Positions 2 to 40,800 of a stretch of DNA of 42,602 nt are shown piece after piece (the first letter of the stretch is position 1; each line of letters starts with the position of its first letter). The DNA comes from an uncultured Candidatus Saccharibacteria bacterium. GTDB lineage: Bacteria > Patescibacteriota > Minisyncoccia > UBA6257 > Colwellbacteraceae. The stretch lies in assembly GCA_964610795.1 (NCBI GenBank), contig CAZSWG010000001.1:1-42602 (forward strand), read 5' to 3'. Below the pieces are notes generated by a model. It searched no databases. It was not told the origin of the DNA and saw nothing but the letters and a program-made list of their open reading frames with translations. A program made the translations under genes and the position numbers.

Positions 2-1279
2 TTAAAGTGTACTTGTGTATTTATCCATATAAGTATTTCCTACTGTTGAATATTTATTTACATAACTTGCTGGCGATGGCGACGCGCTCGCCGAGGCGCT
101 GGGAGATAAAGAAGCGCTAGGAGAAAGAGAAGCACTGGATGACCTTGATGCACTGGCCGAGGCGGAGGCAGAGGCGGATTTTGATGCCGACGCGCTGGCG
201 CTAGCGCTACCAGATGCCGACGCGCTGGCTGACGGACTAAGAGAAGCTGACTCGCTGGCGCTGGCTGACGGACTAGCTGAAGCGCTGGCTGACGCTGAGG
301 GAGATTGAGATTTACTCTCTGATGCCGAGGCACTTCTGCTGGCACTGGCACTCTCTGATTTACTCTCTGATGCCGAGGCTGATTTTGAGGCAGACTTAGA
401 TTCAGAGGCGCTCGCACTCTTTGATTCACTAGCAGAAGGGCTAAGGCTTTTAGATTCAGAGGCGCTGGGAGATAAAGAAGCGCTGGGAGATAAAGATTTA
501 GACGCTGACGCGGAAGGACTTTGTGATGGTGAAAGGCTAGCGCTTGTACTGCTTGACGGACTCTGAGAGGCCGAGGGACTCAGAGAAGGGCTTCCACTAA
601 ACGGTACATCAGTTGAAAATACTGGACTACCTGTTGCTGTTAAATCGTTATTATTAGCCGTTTCGTCAAGATAATCGTTATCAAGCTGCCAATAGGCCAC
701 AAGACCCGCTTCGTTGCCGACTAATTCCGTCTGGTATTTATCGGATATTTCCGTATCGGTTCGTATGTCATTCCAGATTCTTACTTCATCTATGAGGCCG
801 TCAAAAAACTCACTAGCAGGATCAAGTGAATTTGCACCAACATGGACTTCATAGGTATTGTTTCCGATGGTCGTTGCGCCGGTAAGCGCCATCGTATCGG
901 TAATGAGAGAACCGTTAATATAGACCTCAACGCTTGGTACGCTGATGTCTACTGCTATGGCAATATGCGTCCATGTTCCTGAAGTAATAGCAGTATTACC
1001 AACTCCAACAGTAACATTGCCACTCGCGTCACCAAAACGGATAACCGCTTTATCATCGCTCGACCGTATGGCAAATTCATATCCTCCGTTTACATCAGAT
1101 CTGAACTTGGAAATCATGGTAAAACCGGCTCCGGCCGTTGACGGTAATTGTTCCAGTTTTACCCAAGCCTCAACAGTGAAATCCGTCGATAAATCAAGAC
1201 CCGTTTGAGAAGCATCGGCAATAGAGGCATATTGTGAGCTAGAAAGTTCAAGATCAAGAGAATGGGTATTATCGGCCAT
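2..1279 (-). CDS. LamG / concanavalin-A-like lectin domain protein with a long Ser-rich low-complexity array and a Tyr/Lys-rich C-terminal motif
   Basis: ORF track gives 2..1285, but its first codon is TTG. The ATG at 1279 lies 8 nt after a -10-like box. The N-terminal ~225 aa has a Laminin_G_3-like pattern (FTVEAWVKL, GTWTHIAIAV, VYINGSL, FDGLIDEVRIWN, LVAYWQLD). Residues ~230-407 are S-x-S-A-S-x repeats. The protein ends YVNKYSTVGNTYMDKYTSTL, with TAA at 2-4. Confidence 0.8.
   Translation of the reverse strand: MADNTHSLDLELSSSQYASIADASQTGLDLSTDFTVEAWVKLEQLPSTAGAGFTMISKFRSDVNGGYEFAIRSSDDKAVIRFGDASGNVTVGVGNTAITSGTWTHIAIAVDISVPSVEVYINGSLITDTMALTGATTIGNNTYEVHVGANSLDPASEFFDGLIDEVRIWNDIRTDTEISDKYQTELVGNEAGLVAYWQLDNDYLDETANNNDLTATGSPVFSTDVPFSGSPSLSPSASQSPSSSTSASLSPSQSPSASASKSLSPSASLSPSASESKSLSPSASESKSASASESKSASKSASASESKSESASASRSASASESKSQSPSASASASASPSASASESASLSPSASASASGSASASASASKSASASASASASRSSSASLSPSASLSPSASASASPSPASYVNKYSTVGNTYMDKYTSTL
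65..598 (-). repeat. Coding low-complexity array (SPSAS / SESKS hexapeptide-like units, 18-bp periodicity)
   Basis: The translated sequence is almost only S, A, P, K, E, L and R with Ser at every second position. All reading frames are open across it. Confidence 0.9.
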
Positions 1280-1287
1280 ACCCAAAG

Positions 1288-1315: not shown

Positions 1316-2944
1316 TTACTGCAGGGTCTTTACGAGGTCTTTTCCTAATCCCCAATGAGGTACTTCTTCGCTTTCTACCCAGTTAATAAGAAGTTGTTGA
1401 TTCTTATATTGATCTTTTTCCCACCGCATACCTGTAGAATTAACACCAAAACGAATGTCTATATTAGGAGCCTCTGATTTCCACCTACCTAGGTTAAATT
1501 CATGTTTCCACGTAACTCTATGGTGAGTAAAAGGTTCAAACCCTGTGTTTCTGGTAAATTCTTCTTTCGTGAATCGTTCATATCGTTCTCTAAAATGGGT
1601 AATTGCAGCTTCCCGCCAAACACAAAGTCCGGATAGTTGGTTTACGTCATAATGTAAAGCATGGCCGTCTTCTCGTAAGTACCAGATATTTTGGTTATAG
1701 TAAAACGTATCTTTATCCGATGGAGTGAAATCAAAATGTGAAGGATGATAGAGTACGTCATGCTCACAAAAGAAAATTATATCCGACTTGCTATTTTCCA
1801 ACGCTCCCAGAATTTGTTTGAACATAGTGAGATACCCTCTTTTCAATGAAGGGAACCGCACGTTTTTAACTCCAAAGTCCATCTTTTTTAATGACGAACT
1901 GACTATAAACACACTTTTATCTTTCGTTACCTTTAAGAGTTGGTCCCGCACCGGCTTTGCTATTTTCTCGTTCAACTGATTGTCTGTATAAAATATCGCT
2001 CCCTTAGTAATTCCCCAATCGGGAGGATGAAACTTATCTAATATCCATTGGAATTTACGGGTAGCTTTGGGCCACTTATCTTTTTGAAACAACTCTCTTG
2101 AGAGTTCTCTATTTTCATTAACTTTGTTTTGAGGATTAGAATATGGGAAACCAAAATCCCCTCCACGAGTCCGGAAGCAATGCGCGTACCAAGTTTTCAT
2201 ATTGACTAAAACCTGCCCACCTGAAAGCCATGTTTTACAGGCGACCTCAACACCATTCTGTCCCCAGCTATTAAATTCTTCGCTAGTTAAATCTAATTCT
2301 AAATATTTTTGTTTCGTAACCATATAACATGATCCCTGTATGCTCATCGTCTCTCTATAATCTTTATTATAATTTGATCCTATAAGTACTCCTCTTTGAG
2401 CTTCTTCAGTTTTTGACCATCTGCCGTCGTATTGAAAATGCATCGTCTTATCAAATGTAAAAGCGTGAGTAGCAGGACTCTTTTTAGGAATCCAAACAAC
2501 ATCTTTTACTGTAGATTTACCACACTTTTCACACAATCCTGATGGGCTTTGATAACGCCTATGACCATCTGGACACACCCAATCAAAAATGTGCATATTA
2601 CGCATAATAGGAATTAAAGTTGTATCATCCCCTAATTCTTCCATTGCTTTAATCATCTTTAAATCAAAATCTTGGTCTACTGCACAATGGGCATCAAGTT
2701 TCATAACATATTTTGAATTAGATAATCTAACACCTTGATTAATAGCTCCACGCTGACCAACTGATACAGGATTATAAATTATAGCAACTCTATGATTAGA
2801 CTTAAAAGGTGGATCGGGAAGGAAACCATCTAGAACAGCTATTATTTCAGTCTGATCGCTAGTATGTTCCAGTACATCTTCTATGGTTCTGCCCATAAAC
2901 TCTTCATTTCTTCCTATAATTATTATAGAGAGCTTATATTGCAT
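1316..2944 (-). CDS. Two-domain glycosyltransferase: N-terminal GT-A (GT2/GT27-like) domain plus a C-terminal second transferase-like domain
   Basis: SIIIIGRNEE start and a DxH-type motif KLDAHCAV. WGQNGVEVACKTWLSGGQVLVNMKTWYAHCFR resembles the Gal/GalNAc-T motif and conserved His of GT27 enzymes. There is a Cys/His insertion, CPDGH...CEKCGK. The C-terminal ~230 aa carries CEHDVLYHPSHF. Confidence 0.75.
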   Translation of the reverse strand: MQYKLSIIIIGRNEEFMGRTIEDVLEHTSDQTEIIAVLDGFLPDPPFKSNHRVAIIYNPVSVGQRGAINQGVRLSNSKYVMKLDAHCAVDQDFDLKMIKAMEELGDDTTLIPIMRNMHIFDWVCPDGHRRYQSPSGLCEKCGKSTVKDVVWIPKKSPATHAFTFDKTMHFQYDGRWSKTEEAQRGVLIGSNYNKDYRETMSIQGSCYMVTKQKYLELDLTSEEFNSWGQNGVEVACKTWLSGGQVLVNMKTWYAHCFRTRGGDFGFPYSNPQNKVNENRELSRELFQKDKWPKATRKFQWILDKFHPPDWGITKGAIFYTDNQLNEKIAKPVRDQLLKVTKDKSVFIVSSSLKKMDFGVKNVRFPSLKRGYLTMFKQILGALENSKSDIIFFCEHDVLYHPSHFDFTPSDKDTFYYNQNIWYLREDGHALHYDVNQLSGLCVWREAAITHFRERYERFTKEEFTRNTGFEPFTHHRVTWKHEFNLGRWKSEAPNIDIRFGVNSTGMRWEKDQYKNQQLLINWVESEEVPHWGLGKDLVKTLQ

Positions 2945-2973
2945 ATTTGGTTCCTTTAAGCTACAATCATATT

Positions 2974-3444
2974 ATGAAATATCTTCAAATAATCTTGACT
3001 GATAGTGAGAAAACTAGGCTTTTCTCCAAAATTTTTATTGATCCAATTACCAATTGTTGGAATTGGACTTTTGCAAGAGATAAATTTGGATATGGATTTT
3101 TTCGTTATAAAGGAAATACATATAGAGTACATAGATTTATGTATGCCTATCTTATTGGAAAAATTCCTACGGCAAAATATGGCAAAGGAATTCCAGTATT
3201 TGACCATCTTTGTAAAAATAGATCTTGTTGTAATCCTAAACACCTTGAACTTGTTACTCAAAAAATTAATCTTCTTAGAGGATCTAGTCAAATGGCAATA
3301 AACACAAAAAAAATTCATTGTATTAAAGGACATTTACTCCCAAAAGCTAAAAAGGAAAGCCATGATGGAAAGCCTACCAGACGTTGTATAATCTGTCGCA
3401 GAGCCAATCGTATGCGCCGTTATTATGCTACTAAAAACACTTAA
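2974..3444 (+). CDS. Free-standing HNH homing endonuclease
   Basis: Motifs CWNWT, GYGFFRY, RVHRFMY, DHLCKNRSCCNPKHLELVTQKINL (HNH_3-like). It is on the opposite strand to all neighbours and visibly more AT-rich. The track starts at TTG 2947; the ATG at 2974 is preferred. Confidence 0.8.
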   Translation: MKYLQIILTDSEKTRLFSKIFIDPITNCWNWTFARDKFGYGFFRYKGNTYRVHRFMYAYLIGKIPTAKYGKGIPVFDHLCKNRSCCNPKHLELVTQKINLLRGSSQMAINTKKIHCIKGHLLPKAKKESHDGKPTRRCIICRRANRMRRYYATKNT

Positions 3445-3451
3445 ATCTACT

Positions 3452-4234
3452 TTATCCATTTCTTATCCTTTCATTATTTTTTAAAACATCTTTAATAAAT
3501 TCTGGAGAATAACCTGCTTTTTCCGAAGCCTTAACAATTGCGTTCAAATCCTTGGGCAAACACTTCCCGTCAAAACCCCGTCTATTTTTGTATACAGTCG
3601 TAAACATTTTTCCCTGCCGTTCATCTAAAACAAATCCCTCTCTCACAAGAGAGTAATCAACTCCAAACGCTTGTGCTATATTGAAAAACTCATTACAGAG
3701 GGTAACTTTAGCCGCAATAGCGCAATTTTCCATATATTTAATGAGTTCGCTTGTCGTTTCATCTACTTGATAGTACGTCTTCGTTGCCCCGAGGACAGGG
3801 TAAAAGATATCAAGTACCTCCTCCCTGTCCCCAGGGTCGCCCCCAATTATCATAAAAGAATGATGTTGAGGGTCAGTAGGATGAGGGTAAAGCCAAAAAG
3901 GTATATAATATCCGCCTTCACCAACGTACTCGGGACTGTGGCAAATTCGCTTTCCTGTAGCCTGTTTAAGCGACTTCGTAGTACCTGGAGGGATAGTTGA
4001 TTTAATAAGGATTAAACGAGTTTTAAGCCATCCTACGACTTCCTCTACTATGGAAATGTCGCAACTTCCATCCGGAAGCATAGGGGTTGGCACACAAACG
4101 ATAGCCAATTCACATTGATTAACTTCGTCGCGACTCTTTTCAATATTCCCATGTCTATCATAAAAAATAGAATCTGGAAAAATCTTTGCATACGCTCTTC
4201 CTACATACCCTCGTCCGATAATTGCTATTTTCAT
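3452..4234 (-). CDS. Short UDP-glucose/GDP-mannose 6-dehydrogenase-family protein
   Basis: MKIAIIGRGYVGRAYA (Rossmann GxGxxG), VPTP, KSTIPPGT, NPEF-like SPEYVGEG, and the catalytic-Cys motif DGKCLPKD (compare GGSCFPKD). At only 260 aa, the C-terminal nucleotide-sugar-binding domain seems to be missing. Confidence 0.7.
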   Translation of the reverse strand: MKIAIIGRGYVGRAYAKIFPDSIFYDRHGNIEKSRDEVNQCELAIVCVPTPMLPDGSCDISIVEEVVGWLKTRLILIKSTIPPGTTKSLKQATGKRICHSPEYVGEGGYYIPFWLYPHPTDPQHHSFMIIGGDPGDREEVLDIFYPVLGATKTYYQVDETTSELIKYMENCAIAAKVTLCNEFFNIAQAFGVDYSLVREGFVLDERQGKMFTTVYKNRRGFDGKCLPKDLNAIVKASEKAGYSPEFIKDVLKNNERIRNG

Positions 4235-4236
4235 AT

Positions 4237-4443
4237 TTATTTCAAAAACCTACTCCAAAAAATTATTCCGGAAGTAATAGCACATGAAACAGCAGTCCCG
4301 CCTACAACAAAAAGTGCCAAATTCTCACTTTTTCTTCTCATCTCTTGCATCGCAGAATCTGTCTCATTTATTGATATTTCCGGTTGTGGCACTACGTCAG
4401 CTTGCGGTATTGGCTTATCTCTATTTTCTGTCAACATAATCAA
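4237..4443 (-). CDS. Small single-pass membrane protein
   Basis: 68 aa with a hydrophobic segment LALFVVGGTAVSCAITSGIIFW. It is tightly packed between the flanking genes. Confidence 0.4.
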   Translation of the reverse strand: MIMLTENRDKPIPQADVVPQPEISINETDSAMQEMRRKSENLALFVVGGTAVSCAITSGIIFWSRFLK

Positions 4444-5296
4444 GCTCCTTATATAATGTACTAATGTTCTCTATGTGATATTTTTCTGCTTTTTTAAGAC
4501 ATCTTATAGAATATCCATCATAATATGACGGTGAAGCTCTTAATTCATCTAACGCTACTAAAAGTTCTGCCAAATCACCAACAGGAACATAACAGGTTTT
4601 CATCTCTTTGAAAGCCTTTTCATCAAGGGCAATAGTCGGTATGCCAAAAGAAGCGGCATTGACTAGCTTTAACGGATTAGATAAAATTTTCTTATACGGC
4701 CTCCAAACAATTTGAATATCTATCTTCTGGTAAAAATCTATAATATCCTGTCTTGTGAAAAATCTGGAATACTCAATGAGGTTCATTCCTCTTTCTGCCA
4801 GGAGTTGTTTTAGTTCTTTTGGAAGATACAAAAACGCTTTAGCTTCTCCGATAACACCCACCGTATTTACTTCTTTCCTTATCCTTTTAACCCGTTCAAA
4901 ATTGCAATGATGTTGAGGAATAAGTACAATTTTATTAGGAATTACTTTAGACATGACTTCGTAATCCGCTTCTGAACAAACAATGACTGTTACTTCGGGG
5001 TGCTTTTGGACTAATTGACCTAAATTATGACCGTCTATTATATCTAAATAGGGATTTCCCTCAAATACAAAATCATCGCCTTCTCGTACCATTGGTTTTA
5101 CATAAATACATACGCCATTCTCGTATCCGCTTGTCGGATTAAGATTCGCACCAATGTAACCGGCTATCTGATCTCCCCGGATCATAGAAGAAACACGCAT
5201 GAGATGGCCCGCTTTCCCCTTGAGTTTCCGACTGGGATCAAACTCTTGACTAGGATTGATATTAAGAAAAGCCCTTTTTGCGAATATAGAAATCAT
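4421..5296 (-). CDS. Putative GT-B-fold glycosyltransferase
   Basis: The C-terminal region IQIVWRPYKKILSNPLKLVNAASFGIPTIALDEKAFKE resembles the donor-binding half of GT1/GT4 enzymes. It sits inside the sugar cassette. Confidence 0.4.
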   Translation of the reverse strand: MISIFAKRAFLNINPSQEFDPSRKLKGKAGHLMRVSSMIRGDQIAGYIGANLNPTSGYENGVCIYVKPMVREGDDFVFEGNPYLDIIDGHNLGQLVQKHPEVTVIVCSEADYEVMSKVIPNKIVLIPQHHCNFERVKRIRKEVNTVGVIGEAKAFLYLPKELKQLLAERGMNLIEYSRFFTRQDIIDFYQKIDIQIVWRPYKKILSNPLKLVNAASFGIPTIALDEKAFKEMKTCYVPVGDLAELLVALDELRASPSYYDGYSIRCLKKAEKYHIENISTLYKELDYVDRK

Positions 5297-5772
5297 AAGA
5301 CAAAAATCTTTACTATGTCCGCGACCTTAAGTCTTCGTCCCGGGACATTCATTTCAACATTAAAATCTGGTATCAAGTTTATCGAATGCAAAAATTCATC
5401 TTTACTCACTATATAACGGTAAACATCTTGAATCTCGGCATCCCTGTTATTTTTCAAATAATTGATAAGTGTATATGGATTAGATCCCCATGTGATATTT
5501 CCTAACCTTATAATGCAATATTTAGGAAAATTCTCTTTTACCAATCCCTCCATCTCTCTTTTATGCTGAATATACCTTGTATTCCCGTAAAAAATAGACA
5601 GTGAGCTAAAATAGACAAGTCGTTGTGACCTGTTTTGTGCTAATAATAAATCCTTTTCTCTCTGATACTCAGATTCTCTGGTTTCAAGGCTGTTAGATAC
5701 CCCTGAAGCGAAATACAGCCTTCCTGGGTCATCCTGTAAAGCGCTAGCTATGTCTCCATGACCAACTATCAT
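5293..5772 (-). CDS. Short SDR-like protein (possible nucleotide-sugar epimerase/reductase remnant)
   Basis: The ATG at 5772 forms an ATGA overlap with the upstream stop. A YxxxK motif (YIQHK) lies downstream of a Ser-rich strand (FSSLSIF). The N-terminus reads IVGHGDIASAL. This is a weak call. Confidence 0.3.
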   Translation of the reverse strand: MIVGHGDIASALQDDPGRLYFASGVSNSLETRESEYQREKDLLLAQNRSQRLVYFSSLSIFYGNTRYIQHKREMEGLVKENFPKYCIIRLGNITWGSNPYTLINYLKNNRDAEIQDVYRYIVSKDEFLHSINLIPDFNVEMNVPGRRLKVADIVKIFVL

Positions 5773-6416
5773 GTCTTTACCCAAAACCAACTTCGGTATC
5801 TATCTCTAATTTCTCCTTCTTTGTAATCTAATGAACCCACTATAAAAAGGGGTAGCATCCTATAGCTCCACACATACGCTTCCAAAGCTCTTTTAACGTG
5901 AATCAGTTTCCTGAAAGGATAACGGGCGTAATCATGTCCTGACATAATTCCCCCAACCCTCACTTTCTTCAACCAATAGTGCAAATCGTTGGTAAAGTTT
6001 ACAAAGTCATGTCCCGCGTCAATATAGACAAAATCAAGTGAATTATCAGGAAAGTCCTTTACTGCGTCCATTGAATATTTTTTAACAAACGTATAATTCT
6101 TATAGGGAGCCATTCTTTTTTGAGCTTCTTTATAAATATCATCAAAGAATTGCTGTGTTTCTCCTCCTACAAAAACTCCTTCTGGATGCGCGTCAAGTTT
6201 CCACGCATCAATTCCATAGATGGTAGCTTGGGGATTAACTTTACATAAAACTTCAGAATACTTACCCTTAAATACCCCAATTTCTGCCCCTCTATTAAAA
6301 TTCAGTTCAGCAAACAACTCAGCCATATTGTCTCGGCCTATGTTTGGAATTTCAACAATATACTGGTTTCCAATATTAAGATTGTATTTTTTTACTATGT
6401 AGTCAAATGAGTTCAT
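5769..6416 (-). CDS. Class I SAM-dependent methyltransferase (Methyltransf_24 / sugar O-MTase-like)
   Basis: EIGVFKGKYSEVL (motif I), DFVYIDAGHDF and GGIMSGHDY are typical of this family. Confidence 0.7.
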   Translation of the reverse strand: MNSFDYIVKKYNLNIGNQYIVEIPNIGRDNMAELFAELNFNRGAEIGVFKGKYSEVLCKVNPQATIYGIDAWKLDAHPEGVFVGGETQQFFDDIYKEAQKRMAPYKNYTFVKKYSMDAVKDFPDNSLDFVYIDAGHDFVNFTNDLHYWLKKVRVGGIMSGHDYARYPFRKLIHVKRALEAYVWSYRMLPLFIVGSLDYKEGEIRDRYRSWFWVKT

Positions 6417-6483
6417 AACCCGAAAATACGTATTAGTATGTACATTGCTATAGAACCAATAAATGAACCCAAAATTAAATCTT

Positions 6484-6993
6484 TCATACCCAAAAATCTT
6501 CTAAATCAACAAAGTTTGATAGAACGGTTGCATGATTTTTGTCCTTATCCCAAATGATCCGGTACTTAAATAGTGAGTATATTTCCGAGTAGTGATATGT
6601 TTTATCTTTGTTACCGTTTGAGTCATGGATAATGATGTACTTTGCAAATTTAGCAAGCCTCTTAATCTCCTCAACACGGCTAGAATCGGGTGTTTGATCT
6701 ATCAAAACAACATCCCATGGCTTCTCAATCTTCGCGTCCGAGTATTTTTCAACAAAGTTTATTTCGTGTGTAGGACACTTATAACCATAATCTATAAAAA
6801 ATTGCATCCAAGATTTAGTATTCTCATAGGATACTAATTTACGATTAGAAAGATAACATTGATAATGAAGATAAGGAGTACTAAACACTCCCATTCCCAA
6901 CTCTAGGACATCTCCCGTAGTTTTAGACATCGCCTTAATAAGCGCTGGCAGATGAGTACCATAATTGCCGGATACGAACATTTTATATGCCAT
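6484..6993 (-). CDS. Class I methyltransferase-fold protein
   Basis: VLELGMGVFSTP (motif I-like), VVLIDQTPDS and IIIHDSN. A strong SD (GGAGGAAA) precedes the ATG. Confidence 0.45.
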   Translation of the reverse strand: MAYKMFVSGNYGTHLPALIKAMSKTTGDVLELGMGVFSTPYLHYQCYLSNRKLVSYENTKSWMQFFIDYGYKCPTHEINFVEKYSDAKIEKPWDVVLIDQTPDSSRVEEIKRLAKFAKYIIIHDSNGNKDKTYHYSEIYSLFKYRIIWDKDKNHATVLSNFVDLEDFWV

Positions 6994-7882
6994 TTTCCTC
7001 CTGCCATTTATCTAGTAACACTCTCCAATTTTCGGACCATGTAGGCATTAACTCAAATTTGTCTAAAAACCACTCAAAACTATGGAGATAGTTTCCTTTA
7101 TCTCCTACAAAATGTCTGGCTGCTATATCATAGGATTTAACCTCTTGAGCATGATCCATATGATAACCACGTTTGTTCCCTTGCTGATGGAGATGTGCAT
7201 ACCAGGTATTCTTATTGACCATTACTTTACCACCCATTAACCAATTCTTCAGTGCTAACCAGATTGGCTCCATTGCATGTCCGTAGGGGTCAATGTTTGG
7301 GAAGCCCCCCAATTCAAAATATCTATCTTTTGTCATAAACCAACCGGAACCGTGAATTTGTGGGGTTTCATCCACGCCAAGATGACTTGTAAGCCTCTCT
7401 TGAGTTCTCTCTGGCCAATGACCACCTGCCTTGAATCTAAAACCCTTTGGATCAGTGAAGGGACAACAGAGATAAAAGTAATCGTAAAACTCTTCTTTGC
7501 CATCTCTCATCTGAATACTCCAATCGTCTTTGATTATCTTGAAGCGGGGCATGACTATCCAATCTTCTTCCATATCAGCTTGGAGAATCTCATCAAAGCC
7601 TTTTCCGAAGGAACAGTGTGCATCAGACTTGTAGATATACTTGCCAGTAGCCATAGCGGCCATAGCGTTTATGTTGGTTTTGATGCCGACGACCGAAGGG
7701 AAGTGGACTACTTGTGTGTTAGAAACATGGGGGATATCTTCTACTCCATAACCACATTCACCATCAAACCCAACGATAACTTCATACTCTCCGGTCGTAT
7801 TCTCATAGATACTTTTAAGAGTCCGACTGAGGTTCTCTAATTTCTCCCCCCTCGCCGGTATTATTATTGACACTTTGCTCAT
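6983..7882 (-). CDS. GT-A glycosyltransferase, GT27-like paralog 2
   Basis: VSIIIPARGE, a DxH motif at KSDAHCSF, and LALKNWLMGGKVMVNKNTWYAHLH. It is collinear with the 1316..2944 N-terminal domain and with 8834..9724. Confidence 0.75.
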   Translation of the reverse strand: MSKVSIIIPARGEKLENLSRTLKSIYENTTGEYEVIVGFDGECGYGVEDIPHVSNTQVVHFPSVVGIKTNINAMAAMATGKYIYKSDAHCSFGKGFDEILQADMEEDWIVMPRFKIIKDDWSIQMRDGKEEFYDYFYLCCPFTDPKGFRFKAGGHWPERTQERLTSHLGVDETPQIHGSGWFMTKDRYFELGGFPNIDPYGHAMEPIWLALKNWLMGGKVMVNKNTWYAHLHQQGNKRGYHMDHAQEVKSYDIAARHFVGDKGNYLHSFEWFLDKFELMPTWSENWRVLLDKWQEENGI

Positions 7883-8409
7883 GGAATCCTTCCTATAATT
7901 ATCAATCTATCGTCGTATCTTTTTCCCACCTTCTTAACATTTACATAAAATCCAAGGAGCGCTTTTATTAACTCCTTGCCCACGCTCTCATCTGCCACAT
8001 CCTCAATTACATAAATAGTTTTTTTACTAAGCATGGGCATGACTGTTGCACAAGTAAAATACTGATCTTCCGGCTTGTGGCTTCCGTCATCAATAACTAA
8101 ATCAATGTCTGAACCAATTACGTCAATTAAATAAATTAGGTCTTTTTCTATCCCCTGATGACACAGATACGCTACAATACGATCTTCCTTTAAAAGACGT
8201 GTTTCATCAATTTCAGCCCCGTAAATCATTGCGTTAGGAAAGAAGTCTCTGAACATTCTCAAGCCCGCCCCCTCTCCAACACCTATTTCCAGAACCTTTT
8301 TAACCTCATTCCGCCTGTCTTTGAACAGACCATAATAAACAGGCAGGTAGTTATGCTTTCCTATCTTATCGGTGCCGTATTTTTTACCCAGCTTTTCTAA
8401 ATCGTTCAT
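7879..8409 (-). CDS. Class I SAM-dependent methyltransferase
   Basis: KYGTDKIGKHNYLPVYY followed by VLEIGVGEGAGLRMF and VIDDGSH. This is a signature common in sugar and polyketide O-methyltransferases. Confidence 0.7.
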   Translation of the reverse strand: MNDLEKLGKKYGTDKIGKHNYLPVYYGLFKDRRNEVKKVLEIGVGEGAGLRMFRDFFPNAMIYGAEIDETRLLKEDRIVAYLCHQGIEKDLIYLIDVIGSDIDLVIDDGSHKPEDQYFTCATVMPMLSKKTIYVIEDVADESVGKELIKALLGFYVNVKKVGKRYDDRLIIIGRIP

Positions 8410-8837
8410 TTTTGATCTTTGATTCTCTGCTTTAATCTTCCCGATCCAAAATTATGATCTCTCTTGTTGCGATAAATTTCTATACCTCGCTTTTCGCATA
8501 TATTCATTCCTGTCACCGGATGGTCCCTGGGTTCGTCTCCCATTATTCGTACATCTATATCAAGTGTACTTAAAATCTCTTTCAATTCTTCTTCGTTTTG
8601 ATAAACAATTATTTCATCAACATACTTACACGACTTAACCTGTATTTGTCTCTCTACAAGAGATTGGACAGGCTTATTTTTCCAAGGTCTATCTATTGAA
8701 GGATCAGTTTCAATACCAACCAATAAGTAGTCACAAACCTCTTTACACTCTTGAAGCATAACAGCATGACCCGCATGAAAAAGGTCAAAAGCACCGGCTA
8801 CAAATCCTACCCTATCGTTTTTTTGTATTTCTCTCAT
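8406..8837 (-). CDS. Cytidylyltransferase-family nucleotidyltransferase (TagD / HldC-RfaE domain II-like)
   Basis: GFVAGAFDLFHAGHAVML contains the HxGH motif. LLVGIETDPS ... KPVQSLVERQ is collinear with heptose-1-P adenylyltransferase and glycerol-3-P cytidylyltransferase. Confidence 0.8.
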   Translation of the reverse strand: MREIQKNDRVGFVAGAFDLFHAGHAVMLQECKEVCDYLLVGIETDPSIDRPWKNKPVQSLVERQIQVKSCKYVDEIIVYQNEEELKEILSTLDIDVRIMGDEPRDHPVTGMNICEKRGIEIYRNKRDHNFGSGRLKQRIKDQK

Positions 8838-9724
8838 TGTATCCAGCCCATATTTCTAATTTCTTCTTTCCAATTACTCGGCCAACTTGGCATACCGAGA
8901 AATTTATCATCTATAAACCATTCAAACCTGTAAACCATATTCGGCTCTCTATTGTTGAGCCAATGATCTGCTGACCAGCTAGAAGCCTCTATAGTACCTC
9001 CGGGGAATTTATAGAATCGCCCATAATGATTCCCCTTGTGGAGATGTGCATACCAAGTCTTCTTATTAACTTTCAATGCTCCGCCGCCGAACCATGTCTT
9101 AAACCCTATCTCCTGAGACTCCTGAGCGAACTGACCATAGCCTTCTTCATGTAGGCCATGAAGAAAATTATCAAAGTAGTCTTTAGTCATAAAATAGCAC
9201 GAACCCTGCATTGAAGGCGTATCATCAATTTCTTCTTTTATATATTCTTGCCATTTTTCTCTTTTCCACGGTACACCGTGCATACCATCATCGTGATCTT
9301 TACCTTTTCGGGGGAAATCTATATACATATAATCAATAGGATATTTATTATCAGTCCGTTCCTCTATTTTCCAATTTTCCGCATCCAGCGCATATCTTCT
9401 TGGTATCTGTACCCAATTATCCTTCAGGTGATTTTCAATGAGGATTTTTCCGAAGTTTGGGCCAAAAGCACAGTGATCGTCGGTTTTCATAATATATTTA
9501 CCTTTAGCCATAGCTACACAGGCGTTTATACCCGCCCTCAAACCCACAGGAGCGCTTGGATGGATATAGTGGACTCTTTCATCCTCTACAAGCGACTCGG
9601 GCCATTTCTCATCAATGTTGACTATAACCTCTAACTCACACCCAGCGTTTTTGAGTACATCTTCTATGGTTTTAGTAGTAAAAGGTGAATTTCTATTTGG
9701 TATAACAACCGATAACTCAATCAT
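8834..9724 (-). CDS. GT-A glycosyltransferase, GT27-like paralog 3
   Basis: LSVVIPNRN, a DxH motif at KTDDHCAF, SMQGSCYFMTKDYF, and GFKTWFGGGALKVNKKTWYAHLH. Confidence 0.75.
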   Translation of the reverse strand: MIELSVVIPNRNSPFTTKTIEDVLKNAGCELEVIVNIDEKWPESLVEDERVHYIHPSAPVGLRAGINACVAMAKGKYIMKTDDHCAFGPNFGKILIENHLKDNWVQIPRRYALDAENWKIEERTDNKYPIDYMYIDFPRKGKDHDDGMHGVPWKREKWQEYIKEEIDDTPSMQGSCYFMTKDYFDNFLHGLHEEGYGQFAQESQEIGFKTWFGGGALKVNKKTWYAHLHKGNHYGRFYKFPGGTIEASSWSADHWLNNREPNMVYRFEWFIDDKFLGMPSWPSNWKEEIRNMGWIQ

Positions 9725-10514: not shown

Positions 10515-11525
10515 TTATGGGAATGAAATGCTTGCACTCGGGCTTGCACTAGCTGATGGCGAAAGTGATCCAGATGGACTGTAGGACGCGCTGGCTGATC
10601 TTGACGCGCTGGCCGATGGCGATGCGCTCCCTGACGGGCTAAGAGAGGGAGAAGCCGACTTGGATGCACTGGCAGACGGACTCTTAGAAGCGCTTGCTGA
10701 CCTTGATCCGCTAGCACTACCAGATGCCGAGGCTGAAGCGCTTGCGGAAGCCGAGGCTGATTTTGAGGCTGATGCCGAGGCGCTAGCGCTGGCTGATCTT
10801 GACGCGCTGGCCGATTCCGAAGCAGACGGGCTGGCAGAACCAGATGGACTGAGTGATGCAGATACGCTGGCGCTTTCCGAGGCAGACGGACTAAGGGAAG
10901 CCGATGCACTAGCGCTTTCCGAGGCTGATGCACTGGCGCTTTCCGAGGCTGAAGGAGAAGCAGATTTGGAGGCGCTGGCGCTTTCCGAGGCTGAAGGAGA
11001 GAGTGATGGTGACGGGCTTGACGACTTTGATTCTGACTTTGAGGCGCTTTTGGAAGCAGAGGCTGACGGGCTAGCGCTCCCAGACGGCGAAACCGATGGA
11101 CTAACCGAAGGTGATACTGACGGACTTTCCGATGGTGAAGGACTTACCGATGGCGATGGCGAAGCTACTGCCGAACCTACTATACTCCAGATAGCGGCAG
11201 TTGATGTACCAGTATTCCTATACGCATTTCTGCCGGTTTTGGTAAGGTCATAGAAAATTGCACCTACTTTGAACCCCGAATCTCCTGTTGGAAGTGAATT
11301 ACCCTCTGCCTCTAAAATATTGTCAGTTGAAACATGATCTTCATTGGTCGCACTTGCAACTCGGTCATTATCCCATCGTAAAACCCTGTTTGTTCTATAC
11401 GGTAAAAGTGCCGTGAGAAAGTTTGCTTCAACAGTGGTCCGAAGTCCACTAGCTTTGGCCTCAATTCGTGCAAGCTCGGCTTGTGTATCTTTTGATAAAT
11501 CTGCTTTACGCTTAAATACTGCCAT
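10515..11525 (-). CDS. Head-associated protein with a ~120-aa globular N-terminus and a ~215-aa Ser/Pro/Ala tail (possible decoration protein)
   Basis: It lies immediately downstream of the major capsid gene. From residue ~121 to the C-terminus it is made of SPSxS/SASAS repeats. An AGGA lies 5 nt before the ATG. Confidence 0.65.
   Translation of the reverse strand: MAVFKRKADLSKDTQAELARIEAKASGLRTTVEANFLTALLPYRTNRVLRWDNDRVASATNEDHVSTDNILEAEGNSLPTGDSGFKVGAIFYDLTKTGRNAYRNTGTSTAAIWSIVGSAVASPSPSVSPSPSESPSVSPSVSPSVSPSGSASPSASASKSASKSESKSSSPSPSLSPSASESASASKSASPSASESASASASESASASASLSPSASESASVSASLSPSGSASPSASESASASRSASASASASASKSASASASASASASGSASGSRSASASKSPSASASKSASPSLSPSGSASPSASASRSASASYSPSGSLSPSASASPSASISFP
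10518..11165 (-). repeat. Coding Ser/Pro/Ala low-complexity array
   Basis: Same repeat class as 65-598, 37439-37642, 37962-40589 and 41220-42491. Confidence 0.9.
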
Positions 11526-35256: not shown

Positions 35257-36210
35257 TTACTTTCCTAAAACGACATACCATAATACTCTTGATCCTCCCA
35301 AAGTCACATTTCCTCCCGAACTAGATTTCAATTGTATTTTTATAGTATGACTTCCGGATGCGATAGTAGAAACTATAGTTGTTGAAGACGTAGTAAAATA
35401 TTTTCCTGCCGTTTCTTCAATGGAAGGAGTAGACATTTCTCCTGCAACTTGAGAACCATCAAGGTCTATTATAGAAATAGGTGTAACTATATTTGTAGGA
35501 GATGAATCCGGGCTATAGCCTCTTACTGAAGCTCCTATCAAAACTTTTGATGATCTTGCCAGCGTAAATGATAAAGTCATATCTGTTACATCAACAAACG
35601 ACTGGTTTGTAGTAGAAAATGAAGCTGTTTGAGAAATGCTATCTGCTGCAAAATTAGCTGTACTTACTAATCCTGTTGCATCTATAATTGTGGTTTCAGT
35701 ATCATCTTTTACCGTGATATTGCCTTTAGTTACCACAACATTTCCTTCAGCATCAACGGTAAACTTATCATTGATATTTATACTTCCGCCCTCAATTTCA
35801 GCATCAGAGACTAAACTTCCTGCCCGTACTTCTCCCTTAAATACCGCATCTCCCGTAGTTCCGTCTATCGCAAGGGTAGTTATTCCTGCTATATCTCTTG
35901 CAGTTAATCCATTGGGTGTAATTCTTAAATCTCCCGAAATTCCTTTCTTAAAATCACCAACTTGAAACCCCCCGGATTGCTGAAGGTCAAATTCTTCAAG
36001 TATCTTGCGACTTCTGGTATTAAGCGCTGTACTTAATAATTCAACCGCTATTCTTTTTTTAGGAAAAGTTTTTTCTTTTGTAGCAGTTGGGGCATAGTTT
36101 CCTTCTCCCACAGCTTGAGCTTGTGATAGAACAGGCTGTACGACCTCTCCGGGAAAAGGGTTCTCGCTTACAATTTCCGGTTCAAAATTCTTATCTTTCA
36201 TATTACTCAA
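35257..36210 (-). CDS. Tail fibre / spike-like protein
   Basis: Beta-rich repeats (DLRITPNGLTARDIAGITTLAIDGTTGDAVFKG, NINDKFTVDAEGNVVVTKGNITV) and a C-terminal beta-sandwich-like end. It overlaps the upstream gene by 8 nt. Confidence 0.55.
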   Translation of the reverse strand: MSNMKDKNFEPEIVSENPFPGEVVQPVLSQAQAVGEGNYAPTATKEKTFPKKRIAVELLSTALNTRSRKILEEFDLQQSGGFQVGDFKKGISGDLRITPNGLTARDIAGITTLAIDGTTGDAVFKGEVRAGSLVSDAEIEGGSININDKFTVDAEGNVVVTKGNITVKDDTETTIIDATGLVSTANFAADSISQTASFSTTNQSFVDVTDMTLSFTLARSSKVLIGASVRGYSPDSSPTNIVTPISIIDLDGSQVAGEMSTPSIEETAGKYFTTSSTTIVSTIASGSHTIKIQLKSSSGGNVTLGGSRVLWYVVLGK

Positions 36211-37804
36211 AGTAGGTGATAATTCTGAAAATCTCCGGGGTAGTATTTCCGCTGGGAGTCATAATTATTCGCGGCTCGTATATGTCCATTTCTGCACCTA
36301 TTCTAAATACCGCTTTCTTTCCACCTGTTGAAGTAAATGCTTGGTTTCCATCTGCTGTATAAGCCTGTACCCAATCACCGGATTTATTCTTCTGATAATA
36401 GAAGTAAACACTACACCCTACGGGCAGTTCATCCATAAACACTTCAACACGGTCAAATTTTGTAATCTGTTCTGCTTTCTTAATCGGCGTCCTATATTCC
36501 AACCCTTCCCAGGTCCCCTGAGCCTTTGCAGTACTATCTACGGCCTTTACACCAAAATCATCCCCGTCTTTATATGAAGCTATAGTAGTTCCGTCTATAT
36601 TGACTACAGCGCCTATTTCGTCTACATCCAAGGCATACTCAAGATTCATGGTAAAAGGCTGTTCTTTATTTTTACGCCCGTAATAATAAAGACCATTTTT
36701 ACCTGAATCAGCGTCAAATACTCCCCAGATAGACATATTTCCCAATGATTGACGATCCACCCAGCTATCAGCTCCGAATACCCAATCAAATATCTCAATC
36801 TGGTCTACTTCGTTTGCTACTCCTCCCGGATTTACTCTGCCCCCGCCCGGGAATCTTTTAACAGGCATTGAATCAGTGAAGTTCGCAAAAAACAAATTTC
36901 CGTCATCTCCTATCTGAACAAGAGGATACTCACAATCTATTGCTCCATTTACTCCTTTATTGGGATAACCGGCAGGGTACGTACCGGAAACTGCCCTACC
37001 GTTGCGTTCAATAATGGTTTTTATTAGTCTTCCGGGAATTATGTCAAGTGCTTCATTAGTCCACGAATCGTCATATCCAACCAATGCGAGTTTAGATCCA
37101 TTAGCGATATAGTTTGCTCCGCCTACCTGTTTCATTGTGTGCCAGTCAGTACCCGTTAAGTTATCTGCTATTTCAGTTACATCACCCCAAGTTGACGAAC
37201 CAGGCAGAGGCTTTCGCTTTATTGAAGTAGCAGTAGCCCATTGAAGGTATGTTGTACCGCTATCTGAGGGTTTTTCTATAGCTCCTTTAATTGCCCCGTC
37301 TGCGTCCGTATAAACCATTCTTGTAAATCCATCGGGATACCGTCTATAAATATGCCCGGCGTTCCCAAATCCGTACGTGTTGCCATCCGATGCTTTTACC
37401 CAAGCGATAATCAAATCAACATATACATTATTAAGCCCTGCTGATGGAGAAAGAGAAGGACTAACCGAAGAAGAAGGTGAAGATGAAGCTGATGGGCTTA
37501 AACTTTTAGAGGCGCTTCTTGAGGCTGAAGCACTAGGTGATAGAGAAGGTGAAACTGATCCGCTGGGACTTTTAGAAGCACTAGTGCTGGCACTAGGCGA
37601 TTGGGATGAACTTTGCGAAACGGAGGCAGATTGTGAATGGCTGGTATCAAAAAGTCCTTCTTCTTTAAGTGCTTGTCCACAAGAAAGGGTATCATTTGCC
37701 TTGCGTATATCAATTCCGCTTGCGAACTTAAAAGCGCCACGGATACCTCTGTCATTGAATGACGAAATTCCGCCCTCAAAACTTTTAACTGTGTACGTTT
37801 GCAT
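36203..37804 (-). CDS. Tail-module protein with a Ser-rich array inserted after residue ~54 and a large beta-rich body
   Basis: 533 aa. Residues 55-122 read SQSASVSQSSSQSPSAS...SPSLSPSA. The remainder is Gly/Asp/Trp/Tyr-rich and propeller-like in character. Confidence 0.6.
   Translation of the reverse strand: MQTYTVKSFEGGISSFNDRGIRGAFKFASGIDIRKANDTLSCGQALKEEGLFDTSHSQSASVSQSSSQSPSASTSASKSPSGSVSPSLSPSASASRSASKSLSPSASSSPSSSVSPSLSPSAGLNNVYVDLIIAWVKASDGNTYGFGNAGHIYRRYPDGFTRMVYTDADGAIKGAIEKPSDSGTTYLQWATATSIKRKPLPGSSTWGDVTEIADNLTGTDWHTMKQVGGANYIANGSKLALVGYDDSWTNEALDIIPGRLIKTIIERNGRAVSGTYPAGYPNKGVNGAIDCEYPLVQIGDDGNLFFANFTDSMPVKRFPGGGRVNPGGVANEVDQIEIFDWVFGADSWVDRQSLGNMSIWGVFDADSGKNGLYYYGRKNKEQPFTMNLEYALDVDEIGAVVNIDGTTIASYKDGDDFGVKAVDSTAKAQGTWEGLEYRTPIKKAEQITKFDRVEVFMDELPVGCSVYFYYQKNKSGDWVQAYTADGNQAFTSTGGKKAVFRIGAEMDIYEPRIIMTPSGNTTPEIFRIITYFE
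37439..37642 (-). repeat. Coding Ser/Pro/Ala low-complexity array (short copy)
   Basis: Same repeat class as the other arrays. Confidence 0.85.
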
Positions 37805-37838: not shown

Positions 37839-40800
37839 CTAGTCTGGTGAGCTGGGTAACGCATCCCACTCCTTGTATTTTGCTTCATAATCATTACCTA
37901 ACTCTGAATACTTATCACCATAAGTGTTTCCAGTAGCTGAGTATTTATCAACATATTCTATAGGAGATTGGGATGGACTTGCACTTGGACTGGCGCTTGC
38001 TGAAGCGGAAGGACTTTTTGAAGCACTAGCCGATTTAGAAGCACTGGCGGAAGCACTTTTACTTTCAGAAGCTGAAACTGAAGCCGAAGCAGATTTAGAC
38101 TCACTAGCGCTAGCTGAGGCACTGGCAGACGCAGACTCGCTTTTACTTTCTGAAGCACTTGGGGAAAGGGATTTACTTTCGCTGGCGCTGGCAGACTTAC
38201 TTTCCGATGCCGAAACAGATTTAGATTCCGATGCAGATACGCTTGCTGACTCTGAAACACTGGCGGATTTAGATTCAGAGGCAGATGGGCTTAAAGAACC
38301 ACTGGGTGAAAGCGATGCACTTTCAGAAGCCGAGGCTGATCTTGAGACTGATGCACTAGCGGACCCACTTGCGCTAGGGCTTAAAGATGCCGATGCACTT
38401 GCACTTCCACTTGCTGAAGCGGAGGCGGAAGGGCTGAGTGAGGCAGAAGCTGAAACCGACCCTGAAGCTGATTCAGATGCACTGGCGCTCTTGCTCTCTG
38501 AGGCACTCGGAGATAGAGATTTGGATTCTGAAGGAGATTCGGAAGCCGACATAGATGCTGAAACACTTTTAGATTCTGATGCGGAAGGAGAAACACTTTT
38601 AGATTCTGATGGCGATTCAGAGGCACTTGCTGAAACGGAGACGGACTTACTTTCACTTGCGGATGGACTTAAAGACTTTGATTCACTAGCCGATTCCGAA
38701 GCACTGGCGCTGGCAGATCCTGATGCTGAAGGACTGACAGATGCTGACGCGCTGGCTGAAGGGGATAGAGAGGCACTAGGACTGAGACTGGCACTGGGAC
38801 TTAGGCTTTTGCTTGCTGAGGCCGATGGAGACAGAGATGCACTAGCACTTGCGCTGGGAGACAAAGAGGCTGAAGGTGAAAGTGAAGCCGATGGTGAAAG
38901 ACTAGCCGAGGGACTAAGAGACGCTGATGGACTCAAACTGGCGCTGGCAGAGACAGATGGAGATACGCTGGCGCTAGCAGAAGAGCTGGGAGAAACAGAT
39001 GCTGATGGAGATAGTGAAGCGGATGGAGAGAGACTGGCGCTAGGACTAAGGGACGTAGATAGGGATAAAGAGGCTGATGGAGATAAAGACGCCGATGGGG
39101 ACAAACTGGCACTAGCACTTGCGCTGGGTGACAAACTTGCCGATGCACTAGCTGAAGGCGATAGACTGGCAGATGGGGATAAACTGGAACTGGGACTGAG
39201 TGATGCTGATGGACTAAGTGACGCTGAAGGCGAGAGTGATGCACTAGGACTTAATGATGCTGACGGACTTAATGAAGCACTAGCACTCGCTGATGGCGAT
39301 AAAGACGCCGAAGCCGAAGCCGATGGACTTTGAGAAGCGCTCGGCGACAAAGAAGCCGAAGGTGATAATGAAGCAGATGGGGATAAAGATGCCGAGGGAG
39401 AAAGACTTGCACTGGCACTAGGAGATTCTGATGCAGATGCTGAAGCAGAAGCGCTAGCTGAAGCACTAGCAGATGGAGAAAGAGAGGCACTAGGACTTAA
39501 AGATGCCGATGGGGAGAGTGAAGCGGATGGACTTTGACTCGGACTTTCAGAAGGACTTTCGCTTAGACTAGCTGAAGCTGAAGCACTCTTTGATGCACTA
39601 GCACTAGGAGATAAGGAAGCACTAGGAGAAAGAGATGCGCTAGGCGAGAGAGAAGCTGAGGGAGATAACGAAGGACTTTCACTTAGTGATTCAGAGGGTG
39701 AGGCTGATTTACTAGCTGATGCACTTTCTGATGCACTGGGTGACTGAGAAGCTGATGGTGAAATACTAGCTGAAGGACTTAAACTAGCTGAAGGACTAAG
39801 AGAGGCACTGGCGCTAGCGGAAGGACTAGCGGAGGCAGAAGCAGAAGCCGATGGACTTTCAGACGCGGAAGGACTAAGTGAAGCACTTGGTGACAGTGAT
39901 GCACTAGCTGAAGCACTCGGAGATAAAGAAGCACTCTCGGAAGCCGATGGACTCAAAGAAGCAGAAGGCGACAAACTGGCACTTGGTGATAAGGAAGCGC
40001 TGGGACTTAGAGAAGGAGATGCACTAGCACTTGGTGACAGTGATGCACTAGCTGAAGCACTCGGTGACTGAGAGGCTGAGGGACTAAGCGATGCTGATGG
40101 TGAAAGCGATGCACTTGGGCTTAAAGATGCTGAAGCACTAGCGCTGGGGGAGAGAGATGCTGAAGCACTAGCGCTGGGACTCAAACTCGCCGATGGAGAT
40201 AAGGAAGCAGAGGGACTTAGAGAAGCAGAAGGAGACAAACTAGCACTGGCTGACGCTGAAGGGGACAAAGACGCTGAAGCTGAAACACTTGGACTAAGGC
40301 TAGCGCTTGGTGAGAGGGAAGCCGAAGGACTAAGAGAGGCTGAGGGACTAAGCGATGCTGATGGTGATAGTGATGCTGATGCAGAAGCACTGGGTGAAAG
40401 ACTAGCCGAAGCTGAGGCGCTAGGAGACAATGAAGCCGATGGACTCAAACTGGCTGATGGGCTGAGAGATGCTGATGGAGACAAGGAAGCCGAAGCACTG
40501 GCTGATGGGCTGAGTGAAGCACTAGCACTCGCTGATGGAGATAAGCTGGCGCTGAGGGAGAGAGAGGCGGAGGGGGAAACTGTAGATGCCGGAGAGAACC
40601 CTGCCGCTACTTGTGCCCAAGTATCGGAAGCGTCAAGGGTTTCACTCATTGTAGACACCCCAGCGGGGTTTACTGGTCCTTCGTGGGTGATGCAAGAAGT
40701 TCCCCCAAGAAAACCCGATGACCAGATAAAGTCGGCTCTTTCGGTCTGGTTCGCACCTGGAGAGTAATTCGTTCCGGCACCATTGTCCAAGCGATTAACA

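Follow-up and report, generated by a model that had tools for sequence, protein, structure and literature searches.

Alternating-serine arrays on four phage proteins

The window examined here is the whole of contig CAZSWG010000001.1 (assembly GCA_964610795.1, deposited as an uncultured Candidatus Saccharibacteria bacterium), a stretch of 42,602 nucleotides (nt) that forms the complete contig C1 of a 550-kb, 70-contig bin and carries all of its genes on the minus strand. It belongs to an uncultivated tailed phage that has its own sugar-adding enzymes beside four proteins, P1 to P4, whose open reading frames (ORFs) hold five strict (Ser-X)n arrays, in which serine occupies every second position. 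Together the five arrays take up 12.4% of the contig, at 1,754 residues (5,262 nt). The four proteins and their parts are as follows.

10515-11525, minus strand: P1, encoded after the coat gene, 336 amino acids (aa), a 117-aa N-terminal domain and a (Ser-X) tail reaching the last residue
10521..11162, minus strand: (Ser-X)107 C-terminal tail of P1, residues 122-335
10518..10529, minus strand: C-terminal tip I-S-F-P of P1, the conserved end of the tail
11175..11525, minus strand: N-terminal domain of P1, 117 aa, conserved and apparently of virion-anchor type
2-1285, minus strand: P2, a LamG domain, a 176-aa array and a 22-aa C-terminal motif
599..1285, minus strand: N-terminal LamG/concanavalin-like domain of P2 (Laminin_G_3, Pfam PF13385, E 1.2e-26)
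71..598, minus strand: (Ser-X)88 linker of P2, 176 aa
5..70, minus strand: C-terminal KY motif of P2 (ASYVNKYSTVGNTYMDKYTSTL), 22 aa
36203-37804, minus strand: P3, 533 aa, with a 68-aa array after residue 54
37439..37642, minus strand: (Ser-X)34 insertion of P3, 68 residues, of fixed length
36206..37438, minus strand: beta-propeller body of P3, resembling podophage tail hubs and nozzles (Foldseek against the PDB)
37643..37804, minus strand: N-terminal 54 residues of P3, predicted beta strands (AlphaFold2)
37839-42602, minus strand: P4, 5'-open at the contig end, with arrays of 424 and 872 aa flanking a 214-aa module
41220..42491, minus strand: array a of P4, (Ser-X)212, 424 aa
40578..41219, minus strand: internal globular module of P4, 214 aa, no Pfam or PHROG family
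37962..40577, minus strand: array b of P4, (Ser-X)436, 872 aa
37842..37961, minus strand: C-terminal KY repeat of P4, read from the translation

The anatomy of these arrays and the invariance of their serines are direct observations. A register-aware scan shows every alternate position of every array to be Ser (100%), and such perfect alternation over about 875 dipeptides excludes chance; in array b of P4 the register runs unbroken over 872 residues. At the intervening X positions Ala is the most frequent residue, followed by Pro and then by Leu, Glu and Lys, with Ala at 41-46% and Pro at 16-27% in four of the arrays and with Pro at 24% and Ala at 21% in the short array of P3. A 6-residue superperiod is confined to the two arrays of P4 (autocorrelation 0.46-0.50 against 0.27 expected), where in array b its unit SLSPSA turns rich in Glu and Lys over the last ~230 residues. 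Runs of five or more Ser-X dipeptides are absent from all other minus-strand ORFs of at least 80 aa in the window, that of the coat protein included, and arrays of at least 15 dipeptides are absent from the other 69 contigs of the bin (507 kb). The initial annotation of this stretch had placed Ser/Pro/Ala arrays in four contexts, at different positions on four virion-module proteins, and all four are present on the minus strand with coordinates correct to 3 nt or better (the P1 array, given as 10518-11165, was measured at 10521-11162). To call them the same array, as it did, is right as regards the period-2 rule and the composition of X, but not as regards the higher order, since the superperiod exists in P4 only.

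Conservation of the arrays and their independence as DNA

The array of P3 is a constant feature of its family. More than 120 homologues were recovered, down to 64% identity and 530-538 aa in length; the shorter entries that were inspected proved to be truncated or mis-started, and each of them still contained the array. The landmarks SHS and GLNNVY lie exactly 68 residues apart in 86 of 90 family members, and the array also stands at the same site in all 11 P3 homologue loci that were read. Across 40 aligned homologues (64-87% identity) the entropy is 0.03 bit at the array serines, 1.61 at the X positions and 0.88 in the globular part, and selection appears from this alignment to act on the serine itself. 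A 521-aa protein of the distant locus L068 was considered as an array-less P3 orthologue and was rejected, as it has no similarity to P3.

Orthologues of P1 are found at 19 IMG/VR loci with N-terminal domains 56-89% identical to that of the window; all have the tail, at 150-240 aa, and the array is present in each of the 15 complete orthologues. Insertions and deletions between these tails are even-numbered in every case, with the register always retained. The identity of the X residues is 0.55-0.71 in the ten closer orthologues, above the 0.26 of random pairs, so that positional homology is kept in their alignments, and falls to 0.24 in the most distant one. The serine codons of the P1 array are identical in 17-34% of aligned pairs (27-34% where the N-terminal domain is at least 79% identical). 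Switches between TCN and AGY affect 16-28% of the aligned array serine codons in the closer orthologues, and up to 51% in the most distant, as against 0 of 6-7 serines in the N-terminal domain. Near-complete relatives carry four to five array proteins each, of the same classes and with the arrays at the same sites; array length is fixed in P3, whereas it differs between relatives in the fibres and in P1. This conservation throughout the clade is observed directly, as is the independence of the arrays at the level of DNA.

The latter was assessed by comparing the five arrays pairwise with 200 controls in which the peptide was kept and the codons were redrawn from pooled array usage. The longest common substrings between array genes measure 13-21 nt against null means of 12-20 (p 0.04-0.98, uncorrected), and shared 15-mers are not above the null in the ten pairs. 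Within arrays, 15-mers recur at 5-13% in four arrays and not at all in P3, compared with 0.3-2% in controls, and this excess, which matches the short, degenerate 18-42-nt repeats that are all Tandem Repeats Finder detects there, reflects a modest amount of local duplication. The 100 non-overlapping SLSPSA units of P4 comprise 96 distinct 18-mers and use all six Ser and all six Leu codons, with a mean pairwise codon identity of 0.238 against 0.237 for random draws. The composition of X is similar across genomes and proteins (Ala 30-45%, Pro ~20-25%), its distance being 0.239 within a protein class, 0.278 within a genome and 0.300 where both differ.

Several origins were considered and rejected: a recent DNA graft between genes, as the similarity stays within the synonymous-resampled controls; intragenomic homogenisation of array "dialects", as composition clusters slightly better by protein class; and a slippage-generated microsatellite as the main cause, as the tandem repeats are short and degenerate and codon identity is random. 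The lack of DNA similarity between genes, together with the same-site arrays of the orthologues, speaks against any recent graft, and the arrays appear to be old for the clade, separately evolving and kept by selection on the protein. The portable module that was first thought to have spread within this genome is thus not borne out, as the arrays share no DNA beyond controls, the orthologues all have the array at the same site, the length in P3 is fixed and composition follows protein class slightly more closely than it follows genome. Orthologues had been expected to reveal, if that idea were wrong, ancient and independently evolved regions of different periodicity; they reveal arrays that are ancient within the clade, largely refuting a recent spread, and that have the same period throughout.

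Older exchange of modules at the array sites did take place. Where the coat protein of a relative is 38-48% identical, the post-coat gene encodes the P1 N-terminal domain followed by a globular part of ~430 or 580 aa, and in the array-less distant relatives L067 and L068 the KY-motif fibre has 18-aa LTETITV repeats in place of the array. The scrambling of codons beneath kilobase-long peptide repeats may itself reflect selection against recombination or slippage.

The proteins that carry the arrays

The AlphaFold2 (AF2) model of P3 (predicted local distance difference test, pLDDT, 77; predicted template modelling score 0.78) has a confident, all-beta body. The N-terminal region is modelled with strands at residues 2-6, 25-29 and 44-49 (pLDDT 84, 47, 75, 79 and 86 in successive 10-residue blocks), and the array is disordered, with a pLDDT of 22-35. 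The best Foldseek match is P22 gp10 (E 6e-10, probability 1.0) and the top matches are all hub or nozzle proteins, with further structural matches to Pa223, T7 gp12, the PhiM1 nozzle, Sf6 gp8 and SU10. Searches of sequence against PHROG, Pfam and the PDB return no family for P3, and no relative of it occurs among 50,697 deposited phage records. The adjacent 242-aa protein is 32% identical to a region of L068 annotated as an SU10_adaptor gene. The matches of the model to hub and nozzle proteins indicate that P3 is most probably a core tail protein, the tail nozzle, which agrees with the structural role that had been presumed for it.

The N-terminal domain of P1 is modelled with high confidence (pLDDT 91), and its fold has no significant match in the PDB (best E 1.9) or in BFVD (best E 3.9e-3 over 60 columns), nor does the domain fall into a family in PHROG or Pfam scans. 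An exhaustive HMMER search places it in a family of 99 cluster representatives, of which the nearer ones have SX tails and those at 40-50% identity have globular C-terminal parts of 100-680 aa instead of arrays. These distal parts include a pectate-lyase-type beta-helix that matches tailspike PHROGs (P0144, P0198), and the position of the gene after the coat gene is retained where the coat protein is only 38-48% identical. The variety of distal parts suggests that the P1 N-terminal domain behaves as a virion anchor with swappable distal modules. The end of the tail is conserved as well, reading ...SPSASISFP in 12 of the 15 complete orthologues; one has ...SPSASVSFP there, and the two most divergent ones have SPSFPFE. 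This conserved hydrophobic tip suggests a docking or recognition role for the tail end. Since the family includes tailspike-type beta-helix proteins, P1 may sit on the tail rather than on the capsid, where its location is unproven. The view that the arrays decorate both head and tail is upheld for the tail, through the nozzle-like P3, and is unproven for the head.

P2 and P4 share a plan that recurs in relatives: the N-terminal head is globular and variable, the SX array follows it, and the protein closes with a conserved repeat at its C-terminus. This KY repeat has the form YxDKYSxxGNxYxDKY in one to four copies, is common to P2, P4 and the fibres of relatives, including array-less ones (L036 and L068:5967-8447), and has no Pfam or PHROG family match; the fibres probably attach to the virion, or trimerise, through this end. 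The LamG homologues, 37-51% identical, vary in the linker: some lack one altogether and some have an SX array of SPSISPSI dialect, while others have a poly-Thr/Ser tract (one case, L038) or a Thr-rich repeat with the same KY ending (one case). In near-complete relatives the LamG protein, the giant protein or proteins and P3 follow each other contiguously, which means that the window is either a permuted genome or one whose break falls within the giant gene. A single tail-fibre/nozzle block holds three of the four array genes. P4 has, at its open 5' end, 37 residues (42492-42602) that resemble the end of the 214-aa module (40578-40690), so that the full protein would contain at least two such modules and the contig would break inside the gene. 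As a separate observation, the fibre gene of L068 (IMG 3300033075 contig, e.g. 5967-8447) contains 12 in-frame TGA codons and requires TGA to be read as sense, which suggests that its host has reassigned this stop codon.

A glycosylation cassette that accompanies the arrays

An 8.4-kb block of genes separates P1 from P2.

1316..9724, minus strand: glycosylation cassette between P1 and P2, 8.4 kb, 10 proteins (Pfam)

Its content comprises three family 2 glycosyltransferases (GT2), a GT1-like gene (Glyco_trans_1_4, sub-threshold in Pfam), two Methyltransf_24 proteins, a cytidylyltransferase (PF01467, E 7.6e-15), a UDP-glucose/GDP-mannose dehydrogenase-like gene and two ORFs without assignment. 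Pfam assigns the GT2 enzymes only to the generic Glycos_transf_2 family. The GT2 encoded at 8834-9724 has 11 PDB sequence matches, all of them polypeptide GalNAc-transferases (ppGalNAc-Ts); they are weak, and the best (E 5.4e-5) covers only residues 148-247. The Pfam scan of the cassette proteins finds no ricin-type lectin domain, and the GT2 enzymes have no relatives in the deposited phage records.

By tblastn, cassette genes are present in 12 of 13 array-bearing relatives tested, the short L002 locus being without a match, and are absent from the array-less L067 and L068. A profile of the three GT2 paralogues was further used to collect 80 IMG/VR loci at 40-82% identity, of which 78 were scanned. 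An (SX) array of at least 15 dipeptides lies within 10 kb of the GT2 homologue in 73 of the 78, and in 49 of the 52 loci that are at least 12 kb long. Several of these loci have no likeness to the coat protein, the portal or P1 in their flanks, and their arrays are N-terminal, internal or C-terminal on unrelated proteins. The joint occurrence of arrays and cassette is a direct observation, and that of arrays and GT2 homologues is the strongest support for a functional coupling of the two. It also suggests that the arrays are "portable" over evolutionary time, in the sense of a design rule.

The array carriers at some of these loci were also noted individually. At L141 (a 174.6-kb IMG/VR contig), L130, L139, L145 and L148, with GT2 homologues 44, 45, 44, 42 and 44% identical respectively, the carriers are quite different from one another, among them giant proteins rich in Gly, small proteins in which a beta domain is followed by a C-terminal tail, and one protein whose sequence opens with MAD-(SX)39.

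Comparison with known systems

The serine-rich repeat (SRR) domains in the serine-rich repeat proteins (SRRPs) of Gram-positive bacteria consist of alternating-serine repeats that are O-glycosylated on Ser/Thr, within an SRR1-binding region-SRR2-anchor layout and with strain-specific repeat motifs (PMC6973325). SRRPs such as GspB, Fap1, Srr1/2 and the L. reuteri SRRP resemble the phage proteins in their long alternating-Ser domains, in the variable residues between the serines and in the existence of repeat "dialects". The likeness extends, for P4, to a beads-on-string order of short array, binding region, long array and terminal anchor, and to the presence of glycosyltransferase genes nearby. 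Unlike SRRPs, the phage proteins have no accessory Sec (aSec) signal peptide, AST domain or LPXTG motif; P1, P2 and P3 begin with globular domains, and the ends are ISFP, the KY motif or a beta domain. Neither a GtfA/GtfB (DUF1975) pair nor SecA2/SecY2 turned up when the 10 cassette proteins were scanned with Pfam. The candidate initiators in the phage are instead GT2/GT27-like, and the arrays stand on four architecturally different virion proteins rather than on one adhesin.

A second comparison is offered by mycobacteriophages, whose glycosyltransferases, as Freeman et al. reportedly described in 2023, modify C-terminal extensions of capsid and tail-tube subunits. There, as here, the transferases adjoin structural genes and a C-terminal extension, to be compared with the tail of P1, is the presumed acceptor. 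The differences are that the coat protein of the window has no array, that the presumed acceptors reach 872 residues and lie on nozzle and fibre proteins, and that the enzymes have no sequence relatives in the 50,697 deposited records.

Animal and apicomplexan mucins, with their ppGalNAc-Ts (CAZy GT27), likewise combine dense Ser acceptors with an abundance of Pro and Ala, and a stiff bottle-brush would be expected in both cases. The likeness of the enzymes is weak and partial, however, and the phage enzymes are without a ricin-type lectin and would be cytoplasmic rather than Golgi-resident. The spacing of acceptors in the phage is also strictly of period 2, with Thr almost absent, in contrast to mucin domains. 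Podophage nozzles (P22 gp10, T7 gp12, Sf6 gp8), finally, resemble P3 in the beta-propeller match (E 6e-10 to 1e-7) and in its SU10-type adaptor-like neighbour, but differ in having no detectable sequence similarity to it and low TM-scores (0.3-0.43). We know of no nozzle protein with a 68-residue alternating-serine insertion.

Proposed mechanism and alternatives

By analogy with the bacterial serine-rich repeat adhesins, we propose, with a probability of roughly 0.6, that the arrays are acceptor stalks for phage-encoded O-glycosylation. The alternating serines would be the acceptors for the phage's own cytoplasmic O-glycosylation cassette. The GT27-like GT2 enzymes would start the glycans, and their extension or decoration would fall to the remaining transferases, the methyltransferases and the nucleotide-sugar enzymes. 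Ala, Pro and Leu at X would hold the chain extended and unfolded, and the disordered chains would thereby become stiff, protease-resistant bottle-brush stalks, mucin-like or SRRP-like, that keep the binding heads well away from the tail and cover its hub. In P2 and P4 the arrays would form the shaft between the variable N-terminal heads (LamG and other jelly-roll-like modules) and the KY motif, and the 1,296 array residues of P4, at our estimate of ~0.25-0.35 nm per residue, could span more than 300 nm. The array of P3 would be a fixed 68-residue loop or tether, producing a six-fold collar on the nozzle, and the tail of P1 a hair of ~200 residues with the conserved ISFP at its tip. A glycan on the arrays had been suggested from the start, and the idea is strengthened by the cassette between P1 and P2; glycosylation itself, like the priming enzyme, the stalk or coat function and the position of P1 on the virion, is what we infer.

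A bolder version, to which we would assign somewhat less than even odds, takes (Ser-X)n as a transferable "glyco-tag" code. Any chain of alternating serines would be recognised by the cytoplasmic, mucin-type-like GT2 family. Lineages of uncultivated phages would, in many cases independently, have written such chains onto whatever virion protein needs a stalk or coat, be it a nozzle, a fibre or a small beta-domain protein, at its N- or C-terminus, and the scrambling of codons would have been selected for repeat stability.

Several points weigh against glycosylated stalks. The background for the co-occurrence is the zero arrays in 507 kb of co-binned contigs, and not a matched rate from random contigs, and most of the 78 GT2 loci come from one lineage and are not independent events. 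The likeness of the GT2 to ppGalNAc-Ts is weak (E 5e-5 over ~80 residues), and no lectin domain is present. The cassette could instead act on DNA, on host envelope polymers or on another target. P1, whose fold matches nothing solved, may sit on either capsid or tail, and binning with a 0.55-Mb genome does not prove that this genome is the host.

It is rather unlikely, in our judgement, that the arrays are unmodified, intrinsically disordered entropic spacers and that the sugar cassette serves another purpose (DNA or host envelope). Low-complexity linkers are frequent in fibre proteins, and such spacers would suit the disorder of the P3 array in the AF2 model, the differences in array length of P1, P2 and P4 between relatives, and the poly-Thr/Ser tract that occupies the same place in the distant LamG homologue L038. 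Flexibility alone would nevertheless tolerate the replacement of Ser by Thr, Gly, Asn or Ala, yet nothing in P3 is better conserved than the array serines (0.03 bit), even as X drifts, and an invariant Ser beside a nearly free X seems hard to explain on those terms. Nor would a spacer account for a register unbroken over 872 residues with even-numbered indels throughout, for the company of GT2 homologues in 73 of the 78 loci, or for the joint absence of arrays and GT2 homologues from L067 and L068.

A non-glycan or phospho-linked modification of the serines, such as glycerol-phosphate, a teichoic-acid-like polymer or phosphorylation, would be a variant of O-glycosylated stalks more than a true rival, and we regard it as improbable. 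The cytidylyltransferase family of the cassette (PF01467) includes glycerol-3-phosphate cytidylyltransferases, and two methyltransferases are encoded beside it; the cassette is, however, dominated by three GT2 enzymes and one GT1-like enzyme, and the GT2 enzymes resemble initiators of protein O-GalNAc.

Slightly more improbable still is a regular folded fibrous shaft, silk-like or a beta-solenoid, with Ser and the small residues on opposite faces and no modification target. Amphipathic beta strands and silk, (GAGAGS)n, show this alternation of polar and small residues with a period of two, and the LTETITV repeats of distant relatives form a shaft at the same position as the array. Pro, however, makes up 16-27% of X and recurs at every third dipeptide in P4, which fits poorly with extended beta-sheet stacking, and the array of P3 receives no structure from AF2 and is poorly conserved at X.

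The recent copying or recombination of one portable Ser/Pro/Ala DNA module onto four genes of this genome, for which the common period-2 rule, the similar X composition and the KY motif that P2 and P4 share beside an E/K-rich array end might be cited, is very improbable, given between-gene similarity no greater than in synonymous-resampled controls, fully scrambled codons, the retention of every array at its own site in all orthologues, a composition that does not cluster by genome and a superperiod found in P4 only.

Novelty and implications

Full-text literature searches turned up no account of phage virion proteins with alternating-serine arrays, which is in itself no proof of novelty. The glycosylation of virions by phage enzymes and alternating-serine stalks are each known; their combination here appears to be new. 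Also new are the independence of the arrays at the DNA level with its codon scrambling, the fixed-length insertion in a nozzle, the assignment of P3 as that nozzle, the reading of P1 as an anchor with swappable distal parts, and the joint presence or absence of arrays and cassette. For annotation, the gain is that a 533-aa protein can be given a probable role as tail nozzle and that the post-coat protein can be described as having an apparent anchor-type N-terminal domain with swappable distal parts. The ~1,750 residues of perfect peptide periodicity on randomised synonymous codons also provide an example of a repeat that is apparently kept by selection at the protein level and not by DNA slippage.

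If the serines are glycosylated, the phage would encode a protein O-glycosylation system with a simple, readable acceptor code on several parts of the virion. This would bear on the means by which phages that infect ultra-small or environmental bacteria get to their hosts and recognise them, with extended stalks possibly hundreds of nm long, and on the resistance of virions to proteases or their sticking to a matrix. It would also bear on glyco-engineering, where a short Ser-X tag and a few soluble enzymes might yield designer mucin-like rods in bacteria. The glyco-tag code, if true, would represent a general and so far undescribed way of building phage glycoprotein appendages.

The phage genome

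The phage content of the window includes a large terminase (PHROG E 1e-20) and a major head protein of P22 type (phrog_267, E 6e-17), which has remote tblastn matches labelled "P22 coat protein".

11623-12729, minus strand: P22-type coat gene, with the P1 gene directly downstream

In the deposited phage genomes the only relatives of this coat protein are such remote P22-type matches. Homologues of P3 are absent from 185,579 species genomes and from 40 relatives of the binned genome, and these searches therefore give no evidence of a prophage and no confirmation of the host. In the PHROG-based annotation of the window a scaffold-like protein is encoded near the head genes (12840-13646), and it contains an acidic Pro-Glu/Asp/Thr dipeptide tract at ~13482-13561 (PEPEPEPTPDPEPTPDPEPEPEPEP), a second and unrelated period-2 array within the head module.

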